This document shows, one piece after another, positions 1-31,309 of a stretch of DNA of 32,000 nucleotides. A model generated the notes under the pieces. That model worked only from the letters and a program-made list of their open reading frames with translations. It was not told the DNA's origin and did no database searches. Source of the stretch: Cenarchaeum sp. (lineage in GTDB: Archaea; Thermoproteota; Nitrososphaeria; Nitrososphaerales; Nitrosopumilaceae); contig OY843584.1 in the NCBI GenBank assembly GCA_963692915.1, forward strand, positions 631,186 through 663,185. The letters are read 5' to 3'. Both the position numbers and the translations under genes were made by a program. How positions within the stretch are numbered: the first letter of the stretch is position 1; the number at the start of each line of letters is the position of its first letter.

Positions 1-2000
1 ACAGGGGAATCACCATAGTGCAGGCAAACGTCACGCTCGCATACGCAAAGGACGGCGAGGAGTATGTCATAAACATGATAGACACGCCCGGCCACGTCGA
101 CTTTAGCGGGAGGGTCATACGCAGCCTGCGCGCAATAGACGGGGCCGTCGTCGTCTGCGACGCAGTCGAGGGCATAATGACGCAGACCGAGACGGTGACG
201 CGCATGGCCCTCGAGGAGCGTGTGCGCCCTGTCCTCTATATCAACAAGATCGACCGCCTCATAAAGGAGCTCCGCCTCACGCCCGAAAAGATGCAAGAGA
301 CGCTTGCCAACGTTGTGAAAAACTTTAACTCGCTAATCGACACGTATGCCGAGCCCGAGTACCGCGAAAAGTGGAAGGTGTCAATACAGGACGGGAGCGT
401 CTCGTTTGGCTCCGCAAAGGACCGCTGGGGGTTCAACATTGACATAATGAAGGAAAAGGGCGCCTCCTTCAAGGACATCTATGCCGCATATGACACCGAC
501 GGCAGCGTCGAGGCCCTCGCCGAGCGCGTCCCGATAGCCGATGCGATCCTCGGCATGGTCGTAAAGCACCACCCTCCCCCGCATGTGGCACAGGCGTACC
601 GCGTGCCAAAGATATGGAAGGGCGACCTTGACTCCGAAATTGGCCGCGCAATCGTGAACTGTGACGAGTCCGGCCCCACTGTGATGATGATAGTCAACAT
701 GGCCCTGGATCCAGCGGCCGGTCCGGTGGCCATCGGGCGCCTCTTTTCCGGGACGATAAAGGACGGCGACACCGTGAACATCATTGACACAAAGCGCGAG
801 GGCCGCGTCCAGTCCGTCAACTTTTTCATGGGAAACCAGCGCGAGCAGGTCGGCAGCCTCGGCGCGGGCAACATACCGGCCCTCCTGGGCCTCACCGAGG
901 TCAGGGCAGGCCAGACGCTCTCGAGCATAAAGGGCATAAACGTCTTTGAGGGAATAAAGTACGTTTCTGAGCCCGTCGTGCAGATCGCCATAGAGCCAAA
1001 GCACCCAAAGGACCTTCCGCGCCTAGTCGACGTGCTAAAGCGCCTGACTATCGAGGACCCAAACCTCGTGGTAAAGATAAACGAGGAGAGCGGCGAGACG
1101 ATAATCGCCGGAATGGGCGTTTTGCACCTGGATATCGCGACGACGCTAATAGCCGAGAACAAGGTCGACATCATCACCTCGCCGCCGCTCATCAACTATA
1201 GGGAGACGGTGAGGGGCGCGTGCGACGCCATAATGTCAAAGTCGCCCAACAGGCACAACAAGATATTCATGAGAGTCGAGCCCCTCGAGGATGCCGTTGC
1301 CGACCGCATCCGTGACGGGACGCTCTCGGAGATGAAGGACAAGAAAGAGGTCGCAAGGATGCTGCGCGAGCTCGGCTGGGAGCCAGACGTCGCAAAGAGC
1401 GTCATGCGCTTTGACCCGCGCGGAAACGTCATGATAAACGCGACAAAGGGGGTTCAGTTCATCCAAGAGTCCACTGACTCGATACTCTCGGGCTTTGATG
1501 ACGTGATGAAGGAGGGGCCTGTTGCGCGCGAACAGGTCCGCAACTGCAAGTTTGTCTTTACGCACTTTGTGCCCCACGAGGACCCCGCGCACCGCGGCCT
1601 CGCGCAGCTTGGGCCGGCATCACGGCGCGCGTGCATGGGTGCTGCACTGATGGCCAACCCGACGCTCCTCGAGCCGGTTCTTGCGATCGAGGTTCGCGTT
1701 CCGCAGGACATGATAGGCAACGTCGCCACGGTCATATCGGGCAGGCGCGGAAAGGTCCTTGACACGCAGCAAAAGGGCGTGATTAGCATAGTGACCGGCG
1801 AGCTTCCGGCATCCGAGACGTTTGACCTATCAGAGGCCATGAGGGGCCAGACTGCCGGCAGGGCGATGTGGAACACGCACTTCAAGGCGTGGTCAGAGGC
1901 CCCAAAGTCGATCCAGTCCCAGGTCGTCGCAGACATTCGCAAGCGAAAGGGCCTTGCCCCCGACCCGCCAAAGCCCGGCGAGTTTGTCGACAGAGAGTGA
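1..2000 (+). CDS. fusA: Translation elongation factor 2 (aEF-2), 5' end cut by the window edge
   Basis: The frame is open from nt 3, and the RGITI switch-I motif precedes the listed GTG at 18. It is followed by DTPGHVDF (G3), NKIDR (G4) and the C-terminal HEDPAHRG loop that carries the diphthamide histidine in archaeal/eukaryotic EF-2. Stop TGA at 1998-2000. Family motifs were recognised by eye. Confidence 0.95.
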   Translation, partial: RGITIVQANVTLAYAKDGEEYVINMIDTPGHVDFSGRVIRSLRAIDGAVVVCDAVEGIMTQTETVTRMALEERVRPVLYINKIDRLIKELRLTPEKMQETLANVVKNFNSLIDTYAEPEYREKWKVSIQDGSVSFGSAKDRWGFNIDIMKEKGASFKDIYAAYDTDGSVEALAERVPIADAILGMVVKHHPPPHVAQAYRVPKIWKGDLDSEIGRAIVNCDESGPTVMMIVNMALDPAAGPVAIGRLFSGTIKDGDTVNIIDTKREGRVQSVNFFMGNQREQVGSLGAGNIPALLGLTEVRAGQTLSSIKGINVFEGIKYVSEPVVQIAIEPKHPKDLPRLVDVLKRLTIEDPNLVVKINEESGETIIAGMGVLHLDIATTLIAENKVDIITSPPLINYRETVRGACDAIMSKSPNRHNKIFMRVEPLEDAVADRIRDGTLSEMKDKKEVARMLRELGWEPDVAKSVMRFDPRGNVMINATKGVQFIQESTDSILSGFDDVMKEGPVAREQVRNCKFVFTHFVPHEDPAHRGLAQLGPASRRACMGAALMANPTLLEPVLAIEVRVPQDMIGNVATVISGRRGKVLDTQQKGVISIVTGELPASETFDLSEAMRGQTAGRAMWNTHFKAWSEAPKSIQSQVVADIRKRKGLAPDPPKPGEFVDRE

Positions 2001-2005
2001 GGCCC

Positions 2006-3796
2006 CTAGCCCAGCACGCCGCCAAGTACATCCATGTACGAGGAGGGCACATACCTGCGCATCCTCTGGACCAGGTCGCGCGCGCCGGCATCAAGAATGT
2101 ACGTGACGGCATGGTCATCGGCGCTGCGAACCGAGCGGCCCATGCCCTGCAGCAGCTTTGTGAGCGCGGTGTACCTGTACCAGATGTCGTCCTTTTTCAT
2201 CTTTGCCATGGTCCGCCTGTCGCCAAGCGACAGGTATGGCGTCTTTATGATGATCTGAAACCTCGAGAGATCGTCCTTTAGGTCGACGCCATACCAGAGC
2301 GACGGCGAGACCAGGACGCTGGGATCGCCGTCCTGCCCGTGCTCGGCCAGCGTCTGCTCGCGCTCCTGTCCGGAGTCGTTGTGGAGTATGCGGAGGCGCG
2401 CGGCCTCGGCAGCCCCCAGCTCGGAGCGGACGTGCGCGGCAATGGCGTCGCAATGGTCCTTGCGCGAGGTCAGTATGAGCCCCTTTTCTCCGGCGTGGTT
2501 TCTGAGTATGCTCGCAACGGTCGCATAGACTGCGCCATAGTCATCCTCAGTAGATCTCGCGTTTAGCCTGCGCACGTCCATAAAGCGAACCGTGCGGCTC
2601 TGCGCCGGAAACGGCGAGCGCTCGATCTCTATGAACGCGCAGTCCTCCTCCTCAAGGCCCATCGTCTTGCAGAATATCTCCCTGTGGACAGTCGCGCTCA
2701 TGTAGAGCTGGCGGTCCATGTCAAAGAATCTGCGCGCGTGGGCGCCCACCTCTAGGGGCTTTATCGAGATTCCGCCGCTCTCAGTTGGCTGCACTATCAT
2801 GTTCTCTGGCGCGCCGTCAAGCTCGTGGCGTATGGCATCAAGGTCATCTCGCCTTCGCCGGTACCTTGCGACCATGGAATCCTGCCGGTCGCCGACCGCA
2901 TCGCCCTTTCCGGACTCTTCCATCTCGGCGACTGCCTCGTGGTACACGTCAGCGACGTGCTCGACCATCTTTGTCACGCCATCAACATCATCAGTGTCAT
3001 AGTCTGACATGCGCAGGTTCACATCAGAGAGGTGCGAGCGGTATATGTCCATGCCGATCATGTCTATGAGCTGGTCCTCTATCTCATGGGCCTCATCGGC
3101 AATGATGGACCGGCGCTTTAGCATGTCTGCGGCCCCGGATGGCGGGTACTTGCGAGTCAAAAAATACGCCGCATAGTTGAACACCGTGTGCGACGCGTTG
3201 AGCGCAATGTATTTTTGGTCATAATAGTGGCACTTTTGGCCCTCGGTGAGCGCCTTTATCGACTCGGCCTCTGTCCCGCGGCCGTCGACTGCATACTGTG
3301 TGGGCATTGGCTTGTGCTCACAGTAGACTGTCCGCTTGCGCCCTCCGGCGGCGACCTCCCTCCACGAGCAGTTTGCGCGCGAGCACGACAGCGCGTCATC
3401 GCCGCGGGCCGCATCAGTGCCTGTGCCTGCCTGCTCGCAGAGGACGAGGCACGGAAAGTTGGACTTGCCCTTTAGCGGCCGCAGCCACGCAAAGTCCCCC
3501 GTGTACTGGTCCTGCAGGACCTTTTGCGCCGTGAGCGTGTGCGATGAGCCCGTCGCGCGCGCAAACGCCATGGCTATGTGGCTCTTGCCTATTCCGGTCG
3601 GCGCGCAGAGTATGATGTGCCTAAACCCCGAGGAGAGCGCGTCGTCTATGCGGCCCATAATCTCAGACTGCACGGCACGCGGCTCATAGGCAGAGGGAAA
3701 GCTGTCGACTAGGGAAGCCACATGAGAGGACACGATGGCGTGCGCGTGTGCGGCTCCTTTTAATCCATTGGGGTTATGCCAGGGGGTGCCCTGCAC
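2006..3796 (-). CDS. XPD/Rad3/DinG-family SF2 DNA helicase with Cys-rich (putative 4Fe-4S) insert
   Basis: 596-aa ORF. Walker A CAPTGIGKS (nt 3581-3607) and DEAH within ADEAHEIED (DEAH = 3086-3097). Six Cys lie between them (NFPCLVLC, CSRANC, VYCEH, KCHYY), as in the Fe-S insert of XPD/DinG. The C-terminal block SPSLWYGVDL...QGMGRSVRSADDHAVTYILD resembles Helicase_C_2 motifs V/VI. An in-frame GTG at 3733 sits 24-30 nt downstream of a TATA-like TTAAAAG, so the true start may be 3733. Confidence 0.8.
   Translation of the reverse strand: MQGTPWHNPNGLKGAAHAHAIVSSHVASLVDSFPSAYEPRAVQSEIMGRIDDALSSGFRHIILCAPTGIGKSHIAMAFARATGSSHTLTAQKVLQDQYTGDFAWLRPLKGKSNFPCLVLCEQAGTGTDAARGDDALSCSRANCSWREVAAGGRKRTVYCEHKPMPTQYAVDGRGTEAESIKALTEGQKCHYYDQKYIALNASHTVFNYAAYFLTRKYPPSGAADMLKRRSIIADEAHEIEDQLIDMIGMDIYRSHLSDVNLRMSDYDTDDVDGVTKMVEHVADVYHEAVAEMEESGKGDAVGDRQDSMVARYRRRRDDLDAIRHELDGAPENMIVQPTESGGISIKPLEVGAHARRFFDMDRQLYMSATVHREIFCKTMGLEEEDCAFIEIERSPFPAQSRTVRFMDVRRLNARSTEDDYGAVYATVASILRNHAGEKGLILTSRKDHCDAIAAHVRSELGAAEAARLRILHNDSGQEREQTLAEHGQDGDPSVLVSPSLWYGVDLKDDLSRFQIIIKTPYLSLGDRRTMAKMKKDDIWYRYTALTKLLQGMGRSVRSADDHAVTYILDAGARDLVQRMRRYVPSSYMDVLGGVLG
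3757..3763 (-). promoter_or_regulatory. TATA-like box (TTAAAAG on minus strand) for the helicase gene
   Basis: AT-rich heptamer in a GC-rich spacer, 24-30 nt upstream of the in-frame GTG at 3733. The spacing matches other genes in this window (pgk, giant genes, radical SAM). Confidence 0.35.
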
Positions 3797-4000
3797 AAAA
3801 GGTGGGAGCGGGCAAGATGGCCTGCCGGGCGCAGATCAGTGGGGCTCACCAAAGGCCGGCAGGTCCGGCAGGCTGCCAAAACACACGCTTTGTGGCCTCC
3901 GGCACCCTGCGGGAAAGCCCCTTTTGCCCCATGGCGCACACTTGTGGACGGGGCATCCTTGTTCACAATACTTAACATCAACCCGGCCCAACTCTAGACC

Positions 4001-6949
4001 ATGTCCCCATGGACCGAGCAGAACCGGCTCGGCAGGCCGGTGCGCAAGTTCGTCAATGGCGTGCCCGATCCGCGCTACTGGCAGGCCGGCCTTTACGCGA
4101 ACGCCACGGTGCGGCCGACGCGCAATGCCCCCAACGTCTTTGAAATCTCGCCGGTCAGCGATCGCGAGTCAGTAATCCTCCCCTCGGCCTCGACGCGCTC
4201 GCTGGAGATCGTAAAGGATCCCGGCAGCGGGGGGATTCGCCTCCTCGCCTCGGCCTCGCCGGAGGACTCGTCATATCCGGCCGAGACCGGCCATGAATGC
4301 GCCAGGGTGGGTGCGGCAGCACCCGAGTGGGTGCGCGATCCGGCCGCGCGCGCCTTTGACGTCGAGCTTGCATCACAGCTAAACTTTGCGCCAGTCTCTG
4401 CACCGCCCAACATGCAAAACACGCTGGCGCGCACCATGGCCCCCAGGACAGGTGAGGGCATATGGGTGCAGGCAGTCTTTGAGAGCCAGACAGGCATCCT
4501 CGCGCGCCATGCGCTCGACGCGCACAGGGCCATACGGCGCGCGCATGGCGCAGACGGCAGCACCGGAATCATCGCGCGCACCCTTGAGCCCCACTATGCG
4601 TCAAGGGCCACCCTGCCGCTAGTCGCCCTCTCGATCAGGGGGGCGTTCCTCTCTGACTCGCCTGAAGCAACGCTTGCCGCACTGGGCGCCGCCTTTGGAT
4701 CCGTCTCCGTGGAGGGAGACTCGCTCAGCGCGCACATGTATGACATTGCGCCGCTCCTTGACTGGCTCGAGTCGCGACAGCTCGCCTCAGACGGCGCATA
4801 CGACATACTGGGGCACAACTGCGCAATGTGGAAAGACTCGAGGCTCGGCTTTGGGCGCGACATGTCCCCCGTCCTCGTGGCCACGCACCCCGAGCTCTCC
4901 GCGCTCCTGCGCATTCCCGACGACCCCGCACTGGAGATCAGGTACATGCGGCGCAGGCGCGGCGGCGCAGAAGAGGTCGTGCTTGGCCATGACCTTGCGT
5001 CAGCTGACTATGCGCGCCTCACAGAGTCGCCGGCCTCGATATCCCCGGAGCACATGGAGTCCCACACGTATCTCCTGGGCGCAACGGGCACGGGCAAGAC
5101 GTCCCTCATGAGGTCGCTTGCGCTGCACCTCTGCACGCCAAAGGGCAACGGCTACGACAGGGCCGTGATAATAGTGGACGTAAAGGACGACGACGCGCTG
5201 TCGTACCTCACGCAGCTCGACGCCGAGACACTCGACTCGGGCCGCGTGACATACATTGACATGAACCGCACCGAGTATGCGATAAACCCCCTCGAGCTGC
5301 CGCCCCATGACGAGTCCTCGCGGGACATGGTCGTCTCGCGCAAGATAGGCCAGGTCTCCTCGCTCCTAAAGGAGGTCTATTCGCAGCAGGCCGTCATGGT
5401 CCAGGTCGAGCGCCTCATCAGGCTCCTCCTCGCGCACCTCTACTCGCAAACGCCCTCGCCGACGATGGCCGACCTGTACGGCATCATCACGACGAGCCTG
5501 AATGACCCGACTGCAGCGGCGCGGCGCATGGCGACGGCCTCGCCGGACCTCTCGCAGGCGTTCGCCTCGCTCTCGAGGCTGCCGCGGGACTCGTGGACGC
5601 CGCTCATCAACAGGATCGAGCCGTTTGCCATCGACGCGTACATGAAAAAGAGGTTCTCGGCGCGCCATGGGACAGTCGACTTTGCAAGGATGCTCGAGCC
5701 CGGCCAGATCACGATATTTCGCGCGTCTGAGGCCGAGACGCCCTCGCACGTGCACGCCATCATGCCCACGCTCATAGCGCTCGAGATATGGAACGCGCTC
5801 CTCTCACGGGCCGAGGCCGGCGGGAAGCGCACGCCTGTCACGCTGTTCCTTGACGAGTTTCACATGATGCGCGACGTCACGCTGCTAAAGTCGATGCTCT
5901 CGCGCGGGCGCTCCCTCGGCCTGGGCCTCGTGCTTGCGCACCAGAACCTCTCGCAGGTGGATCGCCCGATGCTTGACATGGTGCTCGGCAACACCTCGAC
6001 GCACATACACGGCAGGGCAGTCGGGGGAGACGCGCGCACGATAGCCAACGCGATAGACCCCGCACACGCCGCCGAGATCATCGACCAGATCAGCGGCCTG
6101 CCAAACCATTCGTTTCTGATCAGCCGCGTCCCGCCAAAGGGCGCCGAGCGCGCCCCGCCGGTGCGCTTTGTGGCGCACGCCCCGCCGCCGCGCGTGACTG
6201 ATGACGCGCACCTCGCGATGTTCCTCAAAAGGATGTCTGACACACACCGGCCTGATGACGGCGCAGGATCAATCCCGCATGACGCGTGGAAGGCAGAGCT
6301 GTCAGTCCTCCTGCCTGCCCGGCTATGGTGGCACATCATCGTGGCGATGCGCGACGGCGGCTCTAGTGTCACGCAGCTCGCCGAGAGCGCCGCTGTCGTG
6401 GGCCTCATCAAAATGCGCTACGAGATCTCCTCGGCGCTCACCTCGATGGTGCATGACAGGCTCGTGAAGAGGATCTCGGATCGCCGGAGCGGGACCGTGG
6501 CGCACCCGACGCACGCGCTCACCGACCTTGCCAGGGAGACGTACCTGCCCTGCTCATTTGGCGCGATCGGCCGTGCCAGGGGAGTCGAGGAGGCCGCGTG
6601 CGCGGCCTTTGAGCACAATGTGGCCAAAGGCCGCTTTGCGGCCATCGCCGCGCAGGGGCGCACGATTGGCTCGTTGAACTCTGTTGACATGATCGCGTAT
6701 GACTATGAGCGCGACTGCGCGCGCAGCGTCGAGGTCGAGTCGGCAGCCGAGGTGAGCAGCCATCCCGAGCACGTCATACACAACATGTCAAAGTGGGAGG
6801 CCATGGGGTTTGTTGGCTGCGACACGTGGTCTGACTCACCGGCGGTGCTGCGCCTGCGCGAAAAGGTTCCCGAGCCTGTCCGCTCGGCAGTCAGGTGCTT
6901 TGTCCTGCAGGACGGCAAGTGGGTGTGCCATGGCGGCACGGGCAAGTGA
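4001..6949 (+). CDS. Large multidomain P-loop ATPase, VirD4/TraG (T4CP)- or HerA/FtsK-like core, with unknown N-terminal region and wHTH plus degenerate PD-(D/E)xK-like C-terminus
   Basis: 982-aa ORF. Walker A GATGTGKT (nt 5078-5101) and Walker B TLFLDEFH (LFLDEF = 5843-5860). RSLGLGLVLAHQNLSQV, YAINPLE and IIVDVKDD blocks resemble coupling-protein/DUF87-type ATPases. Residues 1-350 carry no motif I recognise. Residues ~775-850 look like a winged helix (IIVAMRDGGSSVTQLAESAAV...LVKRISDRRSGTVAHPTHALTDLARE). Residues ~865-945 follow an E...D...ExK-like pattern (FEH...VDMIAYD...VEVES) with the Lys position occupied by Glu. Confidence 0.7.
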   Translation: MSPWTEQNRLGRPVRKFVNGVPDPRYWQAGLYANATVRPTRNAPNVFEISPVSDRESVILPSASTRSLEIVKDPGSGGIRLLASASPEDSSYPAETGHECARVGAAAPEWVRDPAARAFDVELASQLNFAPVSAPPNMQNTLARTMAPRTGEGIWVQAVFESQTGILARHALDAHRAIRRAHGADGSTGIIARTLEPHYASRATLPLVALSIRGAFLSDSPEATLAALGAAFGSVSVEGDSLSAHMYDIAPLLDWLESRQLASDGAYDILGHNCAMWKDSRLGFGRDMSPVLVATHPELSALLRIPDDPALEIRYMRRRRGGAEEVVLGHDLASADYARLTESPASISPEHMESHTYLLGATGTGKTSLMRSLALHLCTPKGNGYDRAVIIVDVKDDDALSYLTQLDAETLDSGRVTYIDMNRTEYAINPLELPPHDESSRDMVVSRKIGQVSSLLKEVYSQQAVMVQVERLIRLLLAHLYSQTPSPTMADLYGIITTSLNDPTAAARRMATASPDLSQAFASLSRLPRDSWTPLINRIEPFAIDAYMKKRFSARHGTVDFARMLEPGQITIFRASEAETPSHVHAIMPTLIALEIWNALLSRAEAGGKRTPVTLFLDEFHMMRDVTLLKSMLSRGRSLGLGLVLAHQNLSQVDRPMLDMVLGNTSTHIHGRAVGGDARTIANAIDPAHAAEIIDQISGLPNHSFLISRVPPKGAERAPPVRFVAHAPPPRVTDDAHLAMFLKRMSDTHRPDDGAGSIPHDAWKAELSVLLPARLWWHIIVAMRDGGSSVTQLAESAAVVGLIKMRYEISSALTSMVHDRLVKRISDRRSGTVAHPTHALTDLARETYLPCSFGAIGRARGVEEAACAAFEHNVAKGRFAAIAAQGRTIGSLNSVDMIAYDYERDCARSVEVESAAEVSSHPEHVIHNMSKWEAMGFVGCDTWSDSPAVLRLREKVPEPVRSAVRCFVLQDGKWVCHGGTGK

Positions 6950-7033
6950 TGTCGGCCAAGAGCAATATTTCCACGTGGCACACGCTTGCTATCTAATCAG
7001 GGCAATCATGACGCACACGCGCATGCCGCGCAG

Positions 7034-10000
7034 CTATTCCGGGGGCGGCGCCGGATACATCTCCAGGAGCGCAAGCTCGGCGAGGTTTATCTCGTGGGCG
7101 ATCTTTGCGCGGAGGCGCTCGAGGTACTCCTTTTGGTCCTCGGGCTCCGGGGAGGCGACATAGGCCGGCTCGGCAGCCGGCGCGGCCGGCGCAACTCCCA
7201 TGGCGCGCAGGTGCTCCTCGGCGATCGCGCGCTCGGACGCGATGAGCTCCGCAAAGCTGTCGGTGCCGCGCGCCCAGCCGTGCTGCGTCGCGCGATCCTC
7301 CTCGTACATCGACTCGTCGATCTCGTGGTACAGCGAGGCGAGGTTGCGCAGCGGCTCGTACGTGCCGGCCGGGGTGATGCGGTAGACGCGGTACTCGTCG
7401 TCGAGCATGTACGTCACGTGGCGCGTGTCATAGTCGTACGTCCCGTCGCCGTCGGCGTCAACGTTGCTGGCGATGAGCGGGTAGAGCACTAGCGCCCCGC
7501 CGTTGACCTCGATGCCGTGGCTCGGGTTTAGCGACTCGCCGGTCACGTGGACGCCGTGGTTGAAAAAGTTCTGCCACGAGTTGCGCCTCTCGTCCCAGAC
7601 GACCGTCGAGACGACGTCAAAGTTGAGGGGCTCGCGGAACGTGTGGTGTATCGTGACTATGCGGCACTCGGCCTCCGAGCCTGGCATGCACGCGCCGATC
7701 TCCGAGCTCGCGCGCAGCGTCTCGGCGTCTATCGTGTCGACTGCGCCGCCGACTGAGGCCGTCGCGTTGCCGTTGCCGTACGGCAGGCTCACCCTTATCT
7801 CGGCGCCCGACTCGCCAAAGTGCTGCCCGCGCCCCAGGCCAAAGGCCAGGCCGACGTGCCTGACGTTGAGCGGGCCCGTGTCCTCAAAGACCTTTATGAT
7901 CGCGACGTTCTCCACTCCGGTCTCCACGGTTATGAGCGGCATGGGCGTGTAATAGTACTCGGCGTCCACGGCCTCTCCGTTGTACGAGAACCCCTGGCTC
8001 ACGCGCCTCGTCCCCGTGGAGTCGACTCCCAGCGTCGGCGGCGTGCAGTCATCGCAGCCGTCCCCGCCGCCGCCGCCGCCGGATCCGGCCTGCGTGGCGC
8101 CAAAGCGCGTAAAGTGGTTTGTCCATATCACGAGATCCCCGCCATCGCGCACGCGGCACTCCCTGAGCTCGATGGCGCCAGAGCCAATACCTCTCGGCAC
8201 CCCAGAGTCATCAAACGATTCGCACTCGGGTATGGAGTGAACGGTGAGGGCGTCTGCGCCGGACAGCCAGAACGCGTGAGCCGCAGCGCCGGCACCGAGC
8301 AGCCTTATCGCCACGGGCCTGTCAAATGTCATCGGAGTCGCATCACCGCTCTTGCCGAACTCGACAAGTATCGCCGGCGGCCTGGAGGACAGAACCCTGG
8401 TCACTGCCTCGTTGGCCGCAGTCTCCTCGTCTGTCCCCTCCGCCGCGACATACTCGGTGCCGCGCGCCGGGGGCGGGAGTCGCGCGACGGCGATGGACTC
8501 GTCAGTGTCAACATCCCCAAAGTCCTCGACCACCGTTGACTGGCGTAATGTGACAGTCGCCCCGTCCACGTTCACCGTTATCGTTCCGGCCAGCGTGTCA
8601 CTGGGCAGCGAACTCAGGATGATCCTCGTGCTCTCGCCCAGCTCGCCTCTCTCCTCCCCTACAGCCTCGATTGTGTACTCGCCTGTGGCAGGCACGGTGA
8701 GCTCGAGCGCGCTAAGAGTGCCGCCAGCCTCGACCAGGGGCGCCTGCATGGTCGGCACGGGAACAAGCGGGTTACCGGCCCTGTCAGTCAGGCCCGATAT
8801 GCTGATTGTGAAGGGGCCAAAGTTCACGCGCGAGTGCACTTGTCTGATCGTGTGCGTGGCAGCTTCGGGGGCTATGGTAAGCGTGAAGGTATGGACCTGG
8901 CCGATTGAGCCACTCGACACTATACTGGCTACGCCGTGCACAGGCTCGGTGTATATTGTCAGCTGATGCGTGTTTCCCGGTGGGCGAAACACTTGGAGGA
9001 ACTCTGGAGGCACGGTGTCTATGACGGCGTTGCCGCCGGACGTAATGTCCGACTGGGTCAGTTCCACGTCAGTCGCGGGGTTTGCCCCCGTTGCGCGTAT
9101 GGTAAACTCGAATGGGGCGTTGTCGTCGGCGGCGTCCACCACGAACGAGTGTGACCACGTCCTGTCGTCGGTGTCGCCGGCGTTGCCCATCGCCGTCGGC
9201 GCGCTTGTCCTGTGCGTGCCCGGCACCGTTATCGTCGGTGCCGGCGACGTCACGATGTCCTCGCTGAACGTGACGTCGAGTGTGATCCTGTCACCGGCGT
9301 TTGCGTACTGGGAGTTTGGCCCCGTCCTGTCCGTGAACGAGCCGCTAGCCTCGTCTGCGACGGTCAGCGTGAGCGGGTACGCCGAGAGCGGCGCGTCATC
9401 CGCAATGTCGTTCGTTGCCGTGTTGGCCGCCAGGCCATTGGCTGCCGCAGACGTGTCAAGTATGTCCGACATCATGGAGGCAGGGACGTCATAGCCCAGC
9501 GCGGGCGGCGTGACGGTCGTGTCGCCTGTGCCCCAGCCGCTTGCGATCACGGTCGACTCGGCCAGCGTGAGCGTGAGCGTGCGCCCGACAAGCTCCGCTG
9601 TTCCAAAGTCTGTGCCCTCCGTGACGGCCGAGGCGAGCTCTGTTGCCGTGGGCAGTGCGGGCGGGGTCGTCGCCGTCGCATAGTGGTACCAGCGCGAGGC
9701 GTCCGGCCCGCCGGCGGCGGCCGTGACGTCCTCGTCAAACGTGACCTCTATTGACCTGGGCGAGACCGTCTTGGCCGTAAAGAGCGGCGGCAGGCCGTCA
9801 ATTGCCGTCGTGCGCCCCGCGATGGGCGTGCCGTCAGAGGCCAAGAGCACCGGCATTGTCTGGCCCGAGGCCGGCCTGTACGCGATGTGGGGGGTGGCAT
9901 CAGAGGCCTGCGCGTCATACCCGATGTAGAACGTGAGCGGCTCGGTGTCGGTGCCGGAGCAGATGCTGGTAATGTCAAACGGCGTGGCTGACACCGCCGC

Positions 10001-13000
10001 CGGGGCGCCGCCGCTCGTGCACACAGCCGAGAACGCGGTGGCCTGCGTCCCGCCGGTTCCGTCACGCGCCGTGCCGACAAACCACTCGTCGAGGTGGATG
10101 TTGCCCGTGACCGTGCTGGTGAACACGATCCTGACATAGGTCGAGTCTGCCGCCCTGTGGGTCGTCGCCGTGTATGCGGCCGGCGGGATTATCTCCAAAT
10201 ACTCTTGCGTCACCTGCGTGCCGGCCGCAAGCGCATTGGGCGCCGTGGCCTTGTCCGTGACTTGGCCGAGGCGGATCATGTAGGTGGCTCCAAGTGTCGC
10301 ATCACTCCCGAGGTTCATGCGCACAAAGTTATCCGAGCCGGGCTGCGTGAGGCTGTCCACGCCAAGGTCAGGCCTGATGCTCCACCCTGCAGTCGTGGAT
10401 GGCAGCTCGACGCCTTCGGTGAACGTCACGTGCACGGTTCTGAGCGAGTGGAACGTGACAGAGACTATGGAGGGCACGAGCCTGTCCGGAACCATCACCG
10501 TTGAGCCGCTGGCCAGGGGGTTGCCGGCCCCGTCACTCAGTCCACTGCCCATATACGTCACAGTCGGCGCAAAGCTAGTGTCAACGTCCGCATCGGCGTA
10601 CGCTATGGTCACGAGGTCGCGTGCCGAGTTGAGGGTCGCGCTCGTGACTGTGACTGTGGTCGTGCCCTCGGCGACTCCCCAGTCTGCTGAACCCACCGTT
10701 GCGCTTCTGGGCAGGTTCTCGGACAGCTTTACAGTCAGCGACGTGGCTGACGTCGTCCTCGTGTCAGCGTCTGTGAGCATTGTGGGAGGCGTGCGGTCTA
10801 TGCTGACGCGGTATCCGGCACCTGCTATGGAGCTGCCGTCAGCATTAGTCGCGCGGGTCGTCAGGTCGGCGTGCGTGAATGTTGCCGCGCTTCCCTCAGC
10901 GTCCGTAACGGTGATGCTGAACGTGACGTCACCTTCTGGCGAGCTGCTCGTCACGCTGTGCGAATAGATGTACCGTAGGGGGTTGGCCTGATCTGGCCTG
11001 AACACGCTCGTGCTAGTCACCGGCGAGCCCGAGTCCGTAAAGAACATCGCGGTGCCAAGAGCCGCCGTGTTACTGACTGTGGCGCTCACGGGAATGAGCG
11101 TGCTGCCGACGTAGAGCGGCTCGGTGACTGTTATGACAACCCACACATTGTCATTCAGGCGAGCAGGATTCGCGAGGTAGGGACTGTTTGAGGGGGTAGA
11201 GGCCTGCTTTCTCATGTGCAGCGAGTCTCTGGCTGCCAGTGCGGGCGGCGCGCCGTCACCGGCCTCAGTCGAGTACGACAGCACGGCATTCACGCCATCC
11301 GTCAGGGTTCCGGCCACATACATGACAGACGGCGTGGCCGCCGTCGAGGAGAGCGGCCCGTGCGTGATGAGGAGCTCCGTGACGGCAGGGCTCGACGGTA
11401 TGGCCGGCGTGACTGCGTCACCTGCCCCTGCCGAGGTCTCCGGCGTTGCAGTCACCTTGCCGGAGGTCGCCACAGTCTCCACGCGCGATATGTCCAGCGC
11501 CACATTGCCTGCGTCACTGGCCGCGTCGTTCTCGGTGACCGTCCAGTTCATCGTGTCAAGCGTGCCCCCAAGGCTGCCATCAAACGTGACCCTTGTTGTG
11601 GTCAGCGTCTGTGTCTCGGCCGTAAACGAGTCCGCAGTCGTGATCATGGCCGACTCTTCTGCGCCCACCGCGTTGGCAGGCTCGGCCATGTCCGCTATAT
11701 CATAGTCTGGAATCACCGTGTACTCCCTGTCAGCCATGATCGCCGAGCCGAGGCTGAGTGTGTACGTGGACAGTGTTTCGCGCATGGCGGACAGCACTTG
11801 TATCCCCACGGGGGAGGTGGAGGGGGAGCCGTCGTCTTCTTGCACAACCCAATTGTTGTCCGTGCCTTCGGTGCCCGCGACGTACGGGTTGGACGTGCCC
11901 TCTATGTTCTCCACAAACGTGACGGGCTCGGTGAACGTGACGTGCAGCGAGGTCGGCGTGGTTATCACGGCTGCCCTTATCTCCGGGGGCGCCGTGTCAG
12001 CGGCGGTGGCCTGGCTTGTCGTCAACACTGTAACGCCATAGGTCAGGTCGCCATCAGTGGCCGTGTATGTCACCTTTGGCGTCGAGGCCGTCGAGGCCAG
12101 GCCGTCGTGCGTTAGGATGATCGAGCGGCGGAGCAGCTCGGCAGGGCCTTCGAGAGTCCCAGTCGCCGCCGAGACTGCCGTGACGCGCCTGTCCGTGCCG
12201 GCCTCGGTCACGGCCCAGTCGTCGGCATCCAGTGTGCCGCCCGGCTGGAGCGGGAACGTCACGGCGATTGTCCTCGAGTCTATCGTCCTGGCCGTAAAGG
12301 CCGCCGGCGGGGCGTCCCCAAATGCCGCTGACACCGAGCGCTCCGTGACTGCGTTGCCCTGCGCGTCGGCCAGTCCGGTCGACGGCAGGCTGACTGTGTG
12401 CTCGACGCCAGTCGTGGCCGCAGAGGCCAGCGTGATGGTGAGCGTGTTCGTGCCTGCGTTGTACGCCGGCGATCCCGCTGCCGGCGTCACGGTGTCCGGA
12501 TCGCTGCCGGCGTCGTCCCCGTCAGGCACGGTCACGGCGTACGTCAGGGTATCTATCGTCCCCGTGTTGGCCATCGCCTCGCCAAAGTTGACCGTGATCG
12601 TGTCAGCCGCGCCAAACGAGGCCACAGGCGTCGGAGGGGCGCCGTCTGCGGCCATCCTTGCCACCAGCGCGGAGAGCGCATTGCCCACAGTGTCCACGAT
12701 CCCCGGCGGGGCGTTCGAACCGGTCGGCACCGTGTAGGTGACCGGCGGCGTGGCCCCAGTCGACGCCGTGTCCGCATGATACAGCGTTAATGCGCCAGAG
12801 GGCTGGCTGCCGGCATGCGAGGCCTGATGCACTCCAACTTGCCATCCAGCGGCGCGCTCTCCGGCGACAGGAAGCACGACGGCCTCGCTGAACGTAATGT
12901 CCGTCCCGGTGCGGCTCACAGTCTTTGCCGTGTACGTCGGCGGCATGTTGTCAACTGCCTCGGCGTCGTGATACGGCACGGAGAGTCCCTGGATGGCCGA

Positions 13001-16000
13001 CGGGGTACCGCTCACCCCGGGGGGCAGGCCGATTTGGGGGATGAGGTTGTGCCTCACATTTGGCGTGGATCCCGTCGATGAGAGCGGCGCGTGCGTGATT
13101 GTCATCTCGGTCGCCGTGTTCGATGGAGACAGCTTAATTGTGGGAAGGAGTTGCGATTGAGCCACAAACACGGACGCGGTGCCCAGCATGAGTGAGGATA
13201 TCTGCCTCCTCTCGGACGTCTGCGGATCACCGTCATCATCATCAGTCACTATCCAATGGCCAAGGTTGAGAAAGCCGCTAGTCAGCGGCGGGCCAAAGAA
13301 CGACACAGTCGTGCTCGTCGGCGAGTTTGTCACTGCCGTGAATGGCGGCGCAGTCGCCATGACAGTCGTGGTCGTCAGGGCGTTGCCAGACGTGTCGGCC
13401 AGTCCCGTGGACGGCAGTGCCACCGCGTACACGTCGCGGTGTGTCGCCGTGCCGGCCAGCATCAGCTCCAGCGTGTGCGTGTGGGGATTGTACTCGTGTG
13501 GCCCGGACAGCGTCACTGCTGTCGAGTCCTCGGTCACCGTGTAGGTGAGGCCCGCTATCGTCTCCGGACTGGCAAGGGCCTCGCTAAAGGCCACATTGAT
13601 CACGCCGGGTGCCCCAAATGACGCGCTAGCCGTGGGCCCGATGCCGTCGGTGAGGGGCACAGACGATCCGGTGCGCAGGACGTTGCGCCCTGACGCGTCA
13701 ACGACCCTGTTGGAGGCCGTGTCGGATCCCGTGTACAGCAGTGCCGTGCCGGCGGCCAGGTCGGTAAAGTCCAGTGCCTGTGTGCGCGTGAGCGTGATCC
13801 TGTCGGCGGCGACATGGCCCGAGTCAAACGTTATGCCGCCGCCAATGGTCCACTCTGAGCCCGTGAGGACAATATTGGCGTCGACAGACTTTGAGAGCGT
13901 CGCGCTCACCTGCGTTGGCGAGTCGAGTGTCGCCGAGACCAGCGTCATCGGGGTGCCATCAACGACCGTTTTTGGCGGCGGTATCTCACGGGTGCGATCA
14001 ACCAACATCAGTTCATCCAGCGTGAACGGGTCGGTGTCCATCGGGTCGCCGCCAGAGTCGGCCAGGGCCGTCTGTCCTGCCAAAAGCGTCGCCGGCTTTG
14101 CGAACATGATGCCCGGCATTGATGTCAAATCCAAATTCGATATTGACTCGTGCCTTAGCGTAAACGCAGTCGCCGAGCTGAGCTCGACTGTCGGCGAGCG
14201 CAGCAGGTCGACTGTGCTGTGCTCGCCGGCCCTGACTGACTGGATCTCCACGGTGACCGGACCGTCAGACGTCATGCCCGCGAGGCTCCAGTCAGCGGCG
14301 CGCAGCGTCCCGCTCACGGCCTCGTCAAGCCTGACCACCGTCGTGCGGTCGCCCGTCAAGAGCGCCACGGAGATCTCGGGGGCAGGCGAGTTAACGACCG
14401 AGATCCCGGATTTCCCAGCGGACTGGTTTGGCGGCGTGGCCCTATCCGCAAAGTTCTGCGCATCGGGAATGTATTCGCCGCTCTTGAGGCGCTGTGGCAG
14501 TGTCCCAACCACCTCGTTGGGGTTGGTCGGCGAGACCATGAGATTGGAGCCCCCAACAGAGCCTGCAACAGGTCCTGTTGTGCCGGCCGCGGTGTGCACA
14601 TGTATAACGGACTCTGGAAGCACAGTGACAGGGCCACTGAATGTGACTCTCACGCTCGTGCCATCACTGCTAACAGATGGGGCAAAAGTGGTAATGCTCT
14701 CCTTGTCGACTGCGACGATATCCCACACCCCGGCGCCCAGGTCCGTGCCGCCAAACGCTAGACCCCCAGTGGCCGGTGAGGTGTACCTGATCGTCGGCGT
14801 CTCATCAGGACCCAAGGCGCCAGAAAAGGCAACGCGAATGTCAAAGTCTAGCCTGTTATCTATCGTGGACGTGACACCTCTACCAGCGGATGAAAAGGGA
14901 TGTCCAACTGCCGTAACGGGTATTTCCCTCGTAGAATCAGGGAGGTTGATGATGACGAACTCGGATGCGCGAATCGTGCTGCCGTCCGCCCTGGACTTGA
15001 GAACTGCAAAATAGCTGGTATCGCCGGTCTTGTCCACACGGAACGGCGGCGTGTGCGTCAGTGTGCACGTGGCAGCGCACGTTGCGGGGTCAAATGGGGT
15101 GCCAGCGCTGTTCTCGAATGTCGGCGCGATGGTGTACACGACGCCGGGGATCGCATTGGCGCCTAGCGTGGCCGTGACGATCATGGCGGTAGTACGCGCA
15201 ACACTCGACACGGTGATCACGTCTGGCAGGGTGTCTGCGTCATGGGGAGTTAACGTGTTGTCAGGCGCCGTGACCCCAAGGTTGGACGTGGTGGCGGTGG
15301 ACATGTCGATGGTGTCGTCAAACGTCATGCGAATCGTCTTTGAGCCCGTAAACTCTGCAGAGCTCAAAACCAGCGGCGGCGTGTGCGTCAGTTCGCACGT
15401 GGCGCCGCACGTTGCGGGGTCAAATGGGGTGCCGGGGCCGTTTGCGAATGTTGGCGCGATTGTGTACACGACGCCGGGGATCGCATCGGCGCTTAGCGTG
15501 GCCTCGACATTCCTGGCGGTAGAACGGGAAACACTCGACACGGTGATCACGTCTGGCATGGTGTCTGCGTCATGGGGAGTTAACGTGTTGTCAGGCGCAG
15601 TGACTGCCATGTTGGACGTAGTGGCGGTGTCAGTGGCGATAGTGTCCACGAACTTCATGAGAATCGTCCTTGGGCCCGTAAACTCTGCTGAGGACAGAAC
15701 ATTCGCGCGCACGAGCACGTTGGCAGTGCTGCCTGACGTGGTGTCTTGCCAATTTATCAAGTTGGCTCCCGATGTTGGGCTCACGTTTGGGGGAGTTGCC
15801 GTGTCCCTGGCCACGATGGTAAAGGTGAGTGTGAAACCACCGGTGTCAGCGGCATCTATAGTGAACGTGTGCCGCCAGCTCCGGTCATTGCTGTCGGCGG
15901 TGTTGACCATGTCCACGGCCGTCGGCGTCCTGTGCGCTCCAGGGACCACTATCGTCGGCGCCGGCGATGTCGCGACGTCCTCGTCAAACGTCACGTCTAT

Positions 16001-16207
16001 GGTAATCCTGTCACCGGCGTTAGCCCAGTGCGCAAGACCTCCAGTGCGATCCACAAAGCTGCTGCCAGTATTGTCGGCCACGGTGACCGTGAGGACGGTG
16101 ACCCCCGGAGGATCCGTGTCTGCCGTTTGGGCCGTCGCACCGCTGACAGAGGCGGCAAGAAAGAGCGACATGATCGCAAACGCCAGTGTTGGCACTGCAG
16201 CCCGCAT
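7034..16207 (-). CDS. Giant secreted surface protein (3057 aa) with many Ig-like (SbsA/Big_5-type) repeats and a distinct 342-aa C-terminal module
   Basis: Uninterrupted 9174-nt ORF. N-terminal signal peptide MRAAVPTLAFAIMSLFLAASVSGA. Recurrent ~100-aa Thr/Ala/Ser-rich modules carry the (V/I)TF(S/T/D)E(A/P/D)V strand motif typical of S-layer-type bacterial Ig-like domains. A Gly6 hinge leads into the CDDCTPPTLG...DADGDGTYDYD (DxDxDG-like) C-terminal module. No C-terminal TM segment. TATA box 25-31 nt upstream of the ATG. Confidence 0.85.
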   Translation of the reverse strand: MRAAVPTLAFAIMSLFLAASVSGATAQTADTDPPGVTVLTVTVADNTGSSFVDRTGGLAHWANAGDRITIDVTFDEDVATSPAPTIVVPGAHRTPTAVDMVNTADSNDRSWRHTFTIDAADTGGFTLTFTIVARDTATPPNVSPTSGANLINWQDTTSGSTANVLVRANVLSSAEFTGPRTILMKFVDTIATDTATTSNMAVTAPDNTLTPHDADTMPDVITVSSVSRSTARNVEATLSADAIPGVVYTIAPTFANGPGTPFDPATCGATCELTHTPPLVLSSAEFTGSKTIRMTFDDTIDMSTATTSNLGVTAPDNTLTPHDADTLPDVITVSSVARTTAMIVTATLGANAIPGVVYTIAPTFENSAGTPFDPATCAATCTLTHTPPFRVDKTGDTSYFAVLKSRADGSTIRASEFVIINLPDSTREIPVTAVGHPFSSAGRGVTSTIDNRLDFDIRVAFSGALGPDETPTIRYTSPATGGLAFGGTDLGAGVWDIVAVDKESITTFAPSVSSDGTSVRVTFSGPVTVLPESVIHVHTAAGTTGPVAGSVGGSNLMVSPTNPNEVVGTLPQRLKSGEYIPDAQNFADRATPPNQSAGKSGISVVNSPAPEISVALLTGDRTTVVRLDEAVSGTLRAADWSLAGMTSDGPVTVEIQSVRAGEHSTVDLLRSPTVELSSATAFTLRHESISNLDLTSMPGIMFAKPATLLAGQTALADSGGDPMDTDPFTLDELMLVDRTREIPPPKTVVDGTPMTLVSATLDSPTQVSATLSKSVDANIVLTGSEWTIGGGITFDSGHVAADRITLTRTQALDFTDLAAGTALLYTGSDTASNRVVDASGRNVLRTGSSVPLTDGIGPTASASFGAPGVINVAFSEALASPETIAGLTYTVTEDSTAVTLSGPHEYNPHTHTLELMLAGTATHRDVYAVALPSTGLADTSGNALTTTTVMATAPPFTAVTNSPTSTTVSFFGPPLTSGFLNLGHWIVTDDDDGDPQTSERRQISSLMLGTASVFVAQSQLLPTIKLSPSNTATEMTITHAPLSSTGSTPNVRHNLIPQIGLPPGVSGTPSAIQGLSVPYHDAEAVDNMPPTYTAKTVSRTGTDITFSEAVVLPVAGERAAGWQVGVHQASHAGSQPSGALTLYHADTASTGATPPVTYTVPTGSNAPPGIVDTVGNALSALVARMAADGAPPTPVASFGAADTITVNFGEAMANTGTIDTLTYAVTVPDGDDAGSDPDTVTPAAGSPAYNAGTNTLTITLASAATTGVEHTVSLPSTGLADAQGNAVTERSVSAAFGDAPPAAFTARTIDSRTIAVTFPLQPGGTLDADDWAVTEAGTDRRVTAVSAATGTLEGPAELLRRSIILTHDGLASTASTPKVTYTATDGDLTYGVTVLTTSQATAADTAPPEIRAAVITTPTSLHVTFTEPVTFVENIEGTSNPYVAGTEGTDNNWVVQEDDGSPSTSPVGIQVLSAMRETLSTYTLSLGSAIMADREYTVIPDYDIADMAEPANAVGAEESAMITTADSFTAETQTLTTTRVTFDGSLGGTLDTMNWTVTENDAASDAGNVALDISRVETVATSGKVTATPETSAGAGDAVTPAIPSSPAVTELLITHGPLSSTAATPSVMYVAGTLTDGVNAVLSYSTEAGDGAPPALAARDSLHMRKQASTPSNSPYLANPARLNDNVWVVITVTEPLYVGSTLIPVSATVSNTAALGTAMFFTDSGSPVTSTSVFRPDQANPLRYIYSHSVTSSSPEGDVTFSITVTDAEGSAATFTHADLTTRATNADGSSIAGAGYRVSIDRTPPTMLTDADTRTTSATSLTVKLSENLPRSATVGSADWGVAEGTTTVTVTSATLNSARDLVTIAYADADVDTSFAPTVTYMGSGLSDGAGNPLASGSTVMVPDRLVPSIVSVTFHSLRTVHVTFTEGVELPSTTAGWSIRPDLGVDSLTQPGSDNFVRMNLGSDATLGATYMIRLGQVTDKATAPNALAAGTQVTQEYLEIIPPAAYTATTHRAADSTYVRIVFTSTVTGNIHLDEWFVGTARDGTGGTQATAFSAVCTSGGAPAAVSATPFDITSICSGTDTEPLTFYIGYDAQASDATPHIAYRPASGQTMPVLLASDGTPIAGRTTAIDGLPPLFTAKTVSPRSIEVTFDEDVTAAAGGPDASRWYHYATATTPPALPTATELASAVTEGTDFGTAELVGRTLTLTLAESTVIASGWGTGDTTVTPPALGYDVPASMMSDILDTSAAANGLAANTATNDIADDAPLSAYPLTLTVADEASGSFTDRTGPNSQYANAGDRITLDVTFSEDIVTSPAPTITVPGTHRTSAPTAMGNAGDTDDRTWSHSFVVDAADDNAPFEFTIRATGANPATDVELTQSDITSGGNAVIDTVPPEFLQVFRPPGNTHQLTIYTEPVHGVASIVSSGSIGQVHTFTLTIAPEAATHTIRQVHSRVNFGPFTISISGLTDRAGNPLVPVPTMQAPLVEAGGTLSALELTVPATGEYTIEAVGEERGELGESTRIILSSLPSDTLAGTITVNVDGATVTLRQSTVVEDFGDVDTDESIAVARLPPPARGTEYVAAEGTDEETAANEAVTRVLSSRPPAILVEFGKSGDATPMTFDRPVAIRLLGAGAAAHAFWLSGADALTVHSIPECESFDDSGVPRGIGSGAIELRECRVRDGGDLVIWTNHFTRFGATQAGSGGGGGGDGCDDCTPPTLGVDSTGTRRVSQGFSYNGEAVDAEYYYTPMPLITVETGVENVAIIKVFEDTGPLNVRHVGLAFGLGRGQHFGESGAEIRVSLPYGNGNATASVGGAVDTIDAETLRASSEIGACMPGSEAECRIVTIHHTFREPLNFDVVSTVVWDERRNSWQNFFNHGVHVTGESLNPSHGIEVNGGALVLYPLIASNVDADGDGTYDYDTRHVTYMLDDEYRVYRITPAGTYEPLRNLASLYHEIDESMYEEDRATQHGWARGTDSFAELIASERAIAEEHLRAMGVAPAAPAAEPAYVASPEPEDQKEYLERLRAKIAHEINLAELALLEMYPAPPPE
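8064..8081. repeat. (CCG)6 trinucleotide repeat encoding the poly-Gly hinge of giant protein 1
   Basis: Six consecutive CCG units on the plus strand (GGC Gly codons on the coding strand). The paralog has four units at 17877-17888. Confidence 0.85.
15038..15697. repeat. Internal tandem duplication of a 330-bp (110-aa) domain unit in giant gene 1
   Basis: Residues 171-280 and 281-390 both run LSSAEFTG...NAIPGVVYTIAPTF...THTPP. Units are at 15368-15697 and 15038-15367. Giant protein 2 has a single unit, which accounts for the 100-aa length difference. Confidence 0.9.
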
Positions 16208-29557: not shown

Positions 29558-29582
29558 AGGCAGATTTGTGCCCAACTGGACA

Positions 29583-30143: not shown

Positions 30144-30171
30144 AGACCCAGTCTGCTCCCCGCGTCACCAT

Positions 30172-30287
30172 GACTCGGCATAATGGCCCAAATGATTTAA
30201 CTGTTTTTGGAATTCCACGCGCGGGAATCGGGCATTCCTGCCCATTTTGGCCAAACGGGCGCGATCCCGCCGATCCGTTTACCGCAA
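30172..30287. repeat. Conserved B-gene upstream/control block 'U', copy 1
   Basis: Near-identical to 31194-31309 (offset 1022). Contains TATA-like TAAATCATTT (minus, ~30190-30200), GGAATTCC (30209-30216) and GGAAT-N5-ATTCC (30224-30238). Confidence 0.8.
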
Positions 30288-30608
30288 CGACGCCCGCCGG
30301 GGGCGCCGTGGCCAGGCTCCACTGCGCCCTGCCGCGAATGTTCGCGTTCTGCACGTCGGCGTCGAGCCCACGAACGGCACCGCCGAGGGGGCGCTGCGGC
30401 ACGGGGCCGTGCGCCGCAAGGCAGGCGGCCAGCGAAAGTGGAGCGCCGCCACGGCCGAGCGCATGCCTACCACCCCGGTATGCCTCTTCACGTGGGGATC
30501 CACGGGATAGAGCACGGCCGGGGAGGTCATGCTGGCGATCCGGGTGCTGACCTCATGATGCACGTAACTCCAAATCAGTAAAAAGGCAGATTCGTGCCCA
30601 ACTGCGCA

Positions 30609-31193: not shown

Positions 31194-31309
31194 GTCCCAA
31201 CAGAATTACCCAAATAATTTAACCGTTTTTGGAATTCCACGCACGGGAATCTGGCATTCCTGCCCATTTTGGCCAAATGGGCGTGATCCTGCCGATCCGT
31301 TTACCGCAA
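31194..31309. repeat. Conserved B-gene upstream/control block 'U', copy 2 (here fused to the A2 promoter region)
   Basis: Contains GGAATTCC (31231-31238) and GGAAT-N5-ATTCC (31246-31260). It is followed by a third GGAATTCC (31315-31322) and GGAATTCG (31430-31437) flanking the TATA palindrome. Confidence 0.8.

Follow-up and report, generated by a model that had tools for sequence, protein, structure and literature searches.

A stretch of 32,000 nucleotides of Cenarchaeum sp. (contig OY843584.1; hereafter the window, of about 62% GC overall) contains, side by side, the genes of an iron-sulfur (Fe-S) helicase and of a large ATPase, which a preliminary description of the sequence had taken for a candidate DNA-translocation or defence module or, alternatively, for a relic of a mobile element. 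Comparison with homologous loci indicates that no relationship exists between the two genes, which an insertion brought together by chance, their adjacency being found only in this genome. The helicase behaves as a vertically inherited core gene alongside that of archaeal elongation factor 2 (aEF-2). The ATPase appears to be a stand-alone member of the archaeal conjugation-type TraG/VirD4-like family and, in what is judged here to be the probable explanation, it works independently, with mobile or foreign DNA as its target, as a domesticated gene of the defence-island type. The elements in question are:

2006-3796, minus strand: Fe-S helicase open reading frame (ORF), 596 residues when the longest ORF is taken
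3797-4000, no strand: divergent intergenic spacer, analysed by sequence and by blastn of the window against two loci of a sister genome (L004 and L001)
3966-3977, plus strand: conserved CAAYRCTTAACA box, with 23 nt between its end and the ATG of the ATPase
4001-6949, plus strand: TraG/VirD4-like ATPase ORF, 982 residues, with an N-terminal domain (N-domain), a P-loop core, a winged helix and a PD-(D/E)xK-like tail

Both ORFs are present at these coordinates and are transcribed divergently and, as already described, they lie between the aEF-2 gene and a giant gene, with which the ATPase gene is convergent across an 84-bp gap. Their linkage ends there. Among all the loci fetched for homologues of either protein, none of the 91 other loci with an ATPase homologue contains the helicase, and none of the three helicase loci contains the ATPase (0/91 and 0/3, respectively). 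In the sister genome, a Cenarchaeum sp. metagenome-assembled genome (OY843768.1), the ATPase (L001, at 1.83-1.85 Mb) and the helicase (L004, at 0.74-0.76 Mb) are 1.1 Mb apart, and in a more distant genome of 1.23 Mb (L005) an ATPase homologue, P0116, is found about 100 kb from the helicase. The helicase is 96% identical in the window and in the sister genome, where it is convergent with EF-2 as in the window, and its number of synonymous substitutions per site (dS) is 0.215, with a ratio of nonsynonymous to synonymous substitutions (dN/dS) of 0.09; the ortholog of the 1.23-Mb genome, 62% identical, maintains the same EF-2 arrangement. The closest ATPase relative in the sister genome is, in contrast, only 69% identical, with a dS of 0.60. 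Because this is about three times the value of the helicase, the window and sister copies of the ATPase are not simple orthologs. With no co-occurrence elsewhere, a helicase conserved with EF-2 and such different divergence of the two genes, the proposal of a helicase-ATPase module is not borne out; this is the outcome that the preliminary description had itself named as refuting the proposal.

The boundaries of the putative insertion can be followed at the nucleotide level, for which the neighbouring genes are needed:

18-2000, plus strand: aEF-2, C-terminal fragment truncated by the start of the window
7034-16207, minus strand: first giant ORF, 3057 residues
16847-25720, minus strand: second giant ORF, 2957 residues
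26129-27349: PGK
27647-28789: CofH-like (CofH/MqnC-like) radical-SAM gene

Similarity between the window and locus L004 of the sister genome extends to position 3864, on the helicase side (94% identity), and resumes at 7014, in the giant gene (90% identity); a window-specific insert (3904-7013) has the ATPase as its sole gene. The similarity between the window and L001 is confined to 3959-6922, i.e. the gene and 42 bp upstream of it. The spacer is accordingly a composite by blastn, with 3787-3864 common to the helicase upstream region of the sister genome, 3904-3958 unique to the window when compared with L004 and L001, and 3959-4000 moving together with the ATPase gene. In the sister genome the slot (L004 5325-9950) is occupied by two MJECL33-like genes, which are a duplication, one MJECL32-like gene and a DDE_3 insertion sequence (IS), the terminal inverted repeats of which are perfect over 24 nt (6629-6652 and 7716-7739); the slot is, therefore, variable, since other genes are found where the window holds the ATPase alone. 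A copy of about 80 bp of the helicase upstream region is seen at both ends of the L004 slot (5364-5414 and 9872-9922). On a larger scale, L005 has the CofH-like gene immediately 5' of the helicase, whereas some 24 kb separate the two in the window, so that the block formed by the ATPase, both giant genes and PGK represents a lineage-specific insertion or rearrangement.

The GC content of the ATPase stretch (64-66%) is like that of its surroundings (59-68%), as had been stated, and the reported lack of an integrase, an att site or transfer genes is confirmed within the window, where no tRNA gene is present either, the Rfam scan returned nothing, and the direct or inverted repeats flanking the ATPase that could qualify as att sites or terminal inverted repeats are only short and at chance level. 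As to the length of the spacer, the 204 bp originally given hold for the longest helicase ORF and do not hold if translation starts at the GTG at 3733. This start may be preferred because helicase homologues are of 563-575 residues and the sister-genome ortholog is called at 575 residues; it would yield a protein of 575 residues and a spacer of 267 bp.

The assignment of the minus-strand gene to the XPD/DinG superfamily of Fe-S helicases seems secure from its domains and motifs. Pfam recognizes Helicase_C_2, DEAD_2 and ResIII; the Walker A motif, the DEAH box and the four invariant cysteines are kept in 20 homologues, and the profile built from these matches the structures of FANCJ, XPD, Rad3 and DinG. 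Its scores against curated equivalog models are far below the cut-offs (in bits, 35 versus 247 for rad3, 91 versus 680 for YoaA, 53 versus 789 for DinG, and 15 versus 400 for cas_csf4), for which reason it is best regarded as a distinct clade of the superfamily and not as an equivalog of Rad3, DinG, YoaA or Csf4. The homologue search returned 109 sequences, more than 80 of which align over 94% or more of the query with an identity of no less than 34%, and several lie on contigs of 1.2-3.2 Mb. PADLOC matches the helicase over its full length with the model 'type IV DinG, associated' (4.6e-56). The corresponding identification as the type IV CRISPR-associated DinG (Csf4) was rejected in view of the cas_csf4 score and of the absence of cas genes from the window, and the match evidently reflects generic similarity within the DinG family.

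The ATPase gene encodes a protein in which five elements can be delimited:

4001-5035, plus strand: N-domain, residues 1-345, from the structural model, Foldseek and hhalign
5078-5101, plus strand: Walker A motif, GATGTGKT, residues 360-367, from the translation
5843-5860, plus strand: Walker B motif, LFLDEF, residues 615-620, followed by LVLAHQNLSQ (643-652), from the translation
6320-6544, plus strand: winged helix-turn-helix (wHTH), approximately residues 774-848, from the AlphaFold model, Foldseek and the family profile
6584-6931, plus strand: PD-(D/E)xK-like alpha-beta-beta-beta-alpha-beta domain, approximately residues 862-977, from the model, Foldseek and conservation

The core had been described as carrying the Walker A and B motifs and a LAHQNLSQ block (residues 645-652) of the type found in type IV coupling proteins (T4CP) and HerA, and both the motifs and Pfam agree with this view, TrwB_AAD_bind (1.5e-9), DUF87 and TraG-D_C all passing their cut-offs for domain matches. 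Across 31 family members G365 and K366 of Walker A, D618 of Walker B and, in the tail, D896, E911 and E913 are invariant, and E619, H647, Q648, Q885 and K931 nearly so. A word-indexed homologue search found five close relatives and one distant relative, while an exhaustive search extended the family to 4989 matches at E<1e-3, with 97 remaining at E<1e-30; residues from about 345 to about 970 are covered in many of these; a second homologue search with the 31-sequence profile, the reach of which was limited by the word index, added nothing new. With tblastn, one gene per plasmid, TraG-like only, was matched in 15 archaeal plasmids at 23-27% identity in the core, the Sulfolobales plasmid genes among them being annotated as type IV secretion system (T4SS) DNA-binding, DUF87 or ATP-binding proteins. 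The gene matched in pNOB8 encodes 1025 residues (ORF1025), and its identification with the traG of the literature is our own. Alignment of the 31-member family profile with this protein by hhalign (probability 100, E 1.9e-63, 638 aligned columns) spans the P-loop core, the winged-helix region and the C-terminal domain (profile columns 249-936) and includes the motif DLVAF...AVEIES..E...HPEQV..NM.K. From these comparisons, the ATPase would be a stand-alone member of the archaeal conjugation-type TraG/VirD4-like family, and the alternative of a relic of a mobile element, already raised in the preliminary description, fits a protein whose relatives are found in conjugative plasmids of Sulfolobus and in a thaumarchaeal cluster resembling an integrative and conjugative element (ICE). 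No relatives were found in phage records or among IMG/VR viral contigs, and a viral packaging ATPase was rejected on this ground. The protein has no transmembrane helix, its maximum 19-residue hydropathy being 1.37 (2.75 in its bacterial relative P0006), and no convincing membrane anchor emerged among the archaeal relatives checked by hydropathy.

The domains flanking the core are known from models and fold searches. That of residues 1-345 was modelled with a predicted local distance difference test score (pLDDT) of 84, and its top 11 Foldseek matches are all TrwK/VirB4 of R388, at weak E-values (7e-3 to 0.1) and with a TMq of 0.31-0.40 and a root-mean-square deviation of about 9 A, so that a resemblance to the VirB4 N-terminal domain (NTD) is weakly suggested. 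It had been presented as a novel N-terminus; it is, rather, common to the whole family, including the cluster-embedded homologues of about 1050 residues described below (hhalign probability 100, a value that is partly circular as close relatives are in the profile). In three loci (L013 and L015, at about 780-3970, and L076) it forms a separate ORF of about 390 residues directly 5' of an ATPase of about 650 residues, which would represent split genes within the family or else a frameshift; a few genes downstream, L015 encodes another DUF87 ATPase, of 622 residues.

At the other end, residues 735-982 were modelled by AlphaFold with 18 sequences (pLDDT 90.7) as a winged helix followed by an alpha-beta-beta-beta-alpha-beta unit, with D896 at the start of the second strand and E911-x-E913 on the third. 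Foldseek matches the regulators MarR, PadR and SmtB, and the family profile, too, matches structures of the MarR family; the PD-(D/E)xK nucleases PaqCI, NucS, BspD6I, FokI and HindIII are matched with E-values of 0.01-0.2 and probabilities of up to 1.0. The D...ExE motif, with a lysine downstream (K931), is the same in pNOB8 TraG. The earlier reading of this region as a winged helix and a restriction-endonuclease-like tail was, thus, right at the fold level, and the tail may be considered a candidate nuclease.

The contexts of the relatives fall into two kinds. A metagenome scan with a 10-sequence alignment as query gave 79 loci, mostly of 33-40% GC, a composition that suggests Nitrosopumilales. 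In the longer ones (among L017-L064, e.g. L023 4983-20511) a homologue of about 1050 residues is found inside a conserved gene cluster, in the order c7, c6, c3, c5, c2, ATPase, c1, a variable stretch, c4, c8 and c9, in which c2 is a type IV prepilin peptidase, c1 an AbrB/MazE-like gene on the strand opposite to the ATPase and c4 a secreted protein of 845 residues. The cluster is probably the conjugation module of a thaumarchaeal ICE, and no VirB4 was found in the cluster flanks sampled. The gene c6, which overlaps the start of c3 (about 400 residues), has a CxC...CxxCG zinc ribbon whose only matches in the PDB are to TFIIB (E 0.08); its identification as TFIIB was not accepted on this weak match. 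The cluster also includes, besides the 845-residue protein, a secreted or anchored protein of 460 residues and, in L040, inserted cargo such as a protein with tetratricopeptide repeats (TPR) and a TIR domain.

The high-GC solo copies, to which that of the window belongs, form one clade in a rough neighbour-joining tree, apart from the cluster-embedded copies. HMMs of the cluster families c1-c9 match nothing in the window or in L001-L003, L008 and L010; no T4SS gene is present within 10 kb in the Pfam listings of L092 and L093, and TrbE/VirB4 and other transfer genes are absent both from the window and from the surroundings, up to 10 kb, of seven other copies of the Cenarchaeum clade or related to it. 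L001 lies with a type I restriction-modification system, an integrase-like gene, two transposases or ISs and arrays of TPR genes, L003 with TPR genes and an HNH gene, L093 with GmrSD, many transposase or IS fragments and an HNH gene, and L002 and L008 with genes of unknown function; a more distant archaeal homologue (L010) is near Cas3. In L092 (10001-19445) a full-length homologue of 39% identity lies between the fragments of a type I cas module, with Cas3 in two parts and Cas7 broken up, and a uvrB-uvrA-uvrC operon on the same strand, which starts 122 bp downstream of the ATPase. Relatives of the ATPase are often in variable regions with defence genes, which speaks for the preliminary description on this point. 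Within the solo clade only TPR proteins, in L001 and L003, emerged as common neighbours when all ORFs of six loci were compared with each other. HNH_4 endonuclease genes of 337-338 residues are present near different solo ATPases (L093 13206-14219 and L003 604-1620), one adjacent to the ATPase and on the same strand, the other 9 kb away.

How the protein relates to known systems may be considered in this light. The crenarchaeal plasmid TraG proteins (pNOB8 ORF1025 and those of pKEF9, pING, pTC and pAH1) are of similar length, about 1000 residues, and share with the window ATPase the P-loop, the wHTH and the D...ExE...K tail; the TraG of pM164, the gene of which is reported, as the only such case, to be essential for transfer of the plasmid in S. 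islandicus (PMC9899855), is placed in the same family by its published annotation. Unlike them, the gene of the window stands by itself on the chromosome, TrbE/VirB4, ParA/B, RepA and integrase genes being absent from its vicinity, and the first approximately 230 residues of pNOB8 TraG do not align with the N-domain of the window family. The signature of thaumarchaeal ICEs combines VirD4/TraG and a prepilin peptidase with a TFIIB gene that directly precedes ParB (Krupovic et al. 2019, PMC6563490), and the low-GC cluster, with its prepilin peptidase and its gene for a TFIIB-like zinc ribbon, resembles it when compared by published description. The cluster homologues of about 1050 residues share all three parts of the architecture with the window ATPase, N-domain included, but the Cenarchaeum clade has none of the cluster neighbours and forms a separate branch.

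Bacterial T4CP (TrwB, VirD4, TraD) have in common with it the Pfam domains TrwB_AAD_bind and TraG-D_C and the NCBIfam SXT_TraD match, at 31 bits versus a cut-off of 366 (12 versus 521 for TraD_Ftype). Among bacteria, its closest relative is P0006 (25% identity), the membrane-anchored coupling ATPase of a PrgI-VirB4-SLT-T4CP-relaxase operon, whereas the window protein has neither an N-terminal membrane anchor nor a relaxase partner and carries the extra wHTH and nuclease-like domains. As for VirB4, CedB and CedD, the VirB4 N-terminal domain is the only coherent, albeit weak, fold match of the N-domain, and the sequence models of VirB4 and CedB, which have cut-offs of 643 and 700 bits, give 15 bits; CedB and CedD are themselves chromosomal, domesticated conjugation-type ATPases with VirB4-NTD-like domains, and the genes of the Sulfolobus Ced components are dispersed (PMC11868833). 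The HerA-nuclease defence systems (Sir2-HerA, DUF4297-HerA, DptH/SspH and the mad8 of MADS), finally, belong to the same superfamily and also combine an ATPase with a nuclease, and the family profile matches defence HerA structures across the P-loop region. In the window, however, the nuclease-like domain is fused to the ATPase and there are no partner genes, with no methyltransferase, Sir2, DUF4297 or Dnd gene being present. PADLOC gives for the ATPase mad8 (8e-20) and weak DndH matches, only as single-gene partials. Membership of MADS was rejected, as the mad8 match covers the P-loop only, the HMMs were built from PDB-based HHpred alignments and the other mad genes are absent.

The solo ATPase looks functional and under purifying selection, although less constrained than the helicase. 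Full-length intact ORFs are found in at least six genomes or contigs, with the Walker motifs and nuclease-like residues invariant, and those of 978-987 residues have remained intact at 58-69% identity and a dS of 0.3-0.8, with a dN/dS of 0.37-0.49 overall and 0.30 in the core. Upstream of five ATPase copies, representing four independent contexts, the CAAYRCTTAACA box recurs at a distance of 23-36 nt from the start codon, and it is the sole conserved upstream block, the surrounding DNA being unalignable; it is read here as a putative TATA-like promoter that moves with the gene and would leave a very short leader or none.

With regard to the other genes of the window, the two giant ORFs (7034-16207 and 16847-25720) are tandem paralogues of 3057 and 2957 residues, with no Pfam domain at all, and are 89-90% identical in nucleotide sequence to the part compared (the 3' 5.1 kb) of a gene for 3060 residues in Cenarchaeum sp. 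OY843768.1. The speculation that the ATPase might serve in the handling of their products finds no support, since in the sister genome, where other genes occupy the position of the ATPase, the giant gene is retained, and HMMs of the cluster secreted proteins c4 and c8 do not match the giant proteins. Towards the end of the window (29000-32000) the GC content falls to 44-55%, against about 62% elsewhere, and only short ORFs are present, with no Pfam match, Rfam family or tRNA.

In the explanation considered the best one, two unrelated genes were juxtaposed by insertion and the solo ATPase probably works on its own on mobile or foreign DNA. By analogy with its superfamily, the HerA/FtsK/T4CP-type core would form a ring and translocate DNA with ATP, the winged helix would bind DNA, the PD-(D/E)xK-like tail might nick or cut it, and the soluble VirB4-NTD-like N-domain may mediate assembly or contacts with partners. 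An autonomous role is favoured because no transfer genes lie within 10 kb of the sampled solo copies and because their contexts are variable and often rich in defence genes. Several observations weigh against it. PADLOC, the use of which had been advised, finds no complete defence system and its mad8 match is a generic P-loop one; the defence genes near four of the eight contexts may just reflect mobile debris piling up together; the tail has a D...ExE motif instead of the classic D...ExK, and the Foldseek E-values of both flanking domains are weak (0.007-0.1). Moreover, the dN/dS of about 0.4 denotes relaxed constraint relative to the helicase, and in P0005 (L003 10001-12703) a stretch of about 80 residues with Walker B and the LAHQN block is missing. 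Decay or an assembly artefact would account for this in a copy that shares 98% identity with that of L002. Finally, the window offers a view of 32 kb of genome, and partner genes could lie elsewhere, as is the case for Ced in Sulfolobus (PMC11868833).

The last point leads to a possible role of the ATPase in trans, in which DNA would be exported or imported between cells by means of a T4SS-like or Ced/Ted-like apparatus whose genes lie in another part of the genome. One of its homologues is a TraG reported to be essential for conjugation (PMC9899855), the components of archaeal DNA exchange are dispersed and include, in CedB and CedD, VirB4-NTD-like domains (PMC11868833), and the top fold matches of the N-domain are to VirB4; in addition, the L092 gene, 122 bp upstream of uvrB-uvrA-uvrC, and the window gene, beside a repair-type helicase, echo the link between Ced and DNA damage. 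A participation in transfer is, nevertheless, deemed unlikely in view of the absence of all of c1-c9 from the window, L001-L003, L008 and L010, of the lack of T4SS genes within 10 kb in the L092 and L093 listings and of a protein with no transmembrane helix. Still more doubtful is that the ATPase is the decaying remnant of a lost ICE, with no present function. The solo context beside ISs and mobile debris, a dN/dS 4-5 times that of the helicase, the one copy that has lost the Walker B region and the failure to find an integrase or att site would all agree with decay, which is difficult to reconcile with full-length ORFs intact in at least six genomes or contigs at a dS of 0.3-0.8, invariant Walker and nuclease-like residues, a conserved promoter-like box and solo copies that form their own clade instead of being scattered among those of ICEs. 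Least likely of all, and indeed very improbable, is a two-gene DNA-translocation or defence module in which helicase and ATPase share a divergent promoter region. ATPase-plus-helicase pairs do occur in defence systems, and the divergent arrangement across a spacer of 204-267 bp and the full-length match of the helicase to the PADLOC 'type IV DinG, associated' model (4.6e-56) speak in its favour; yet the adjacency is unique to the window, the helicase is 96% conserved and syntenic with EF-2 while the ATPase is only 69% identical and located elsewhere, there are no type IV cas genes, and the PADLOC model evidently responds to generic DinG-family similarity, given that there are more than 80 chromosomal homologues, on contigs of Mb scale.

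A further, speculative proposal, to which a low probability is assigned, is that the wHTH and PD-(D/E)xK-like tail serve as the nuclease of archaeal conjugation, in substitution of a relaxase, and that the solo clade is an exapted, single-gene, defence-like enzyme. No recognizable relaxase is present in archaeal conjugative plasmids and thaumarchaeal ICEs (PMC9905601, PMC6563490), and a limited search of the literature found no description of a wHTH and nuclease-like tail on archaeal TraG.

Overall, the finding is mostly an ordinary one, namely a core repair-type helicase beside a solo mobile-element gene, with no new two-gene system. The TraG family and its association with mobile elements are already published, to which the window adds an unannotated solo member. 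For the sponge-associated Cenarchaeum, what emerges is a clade of intact, mobile TraG-like ATPases with no transfer apparatus nearby and often close to defence genes, so that the solo clade may exemplify the recruitment of a conjugation ATPase to a different task on DNA, in a way comparable to CedB and CedD in Sulfolobales. The tail, being conserved also in pNOB8 TraG, is a testable candidate for DNA processing in archaeal conjugation.

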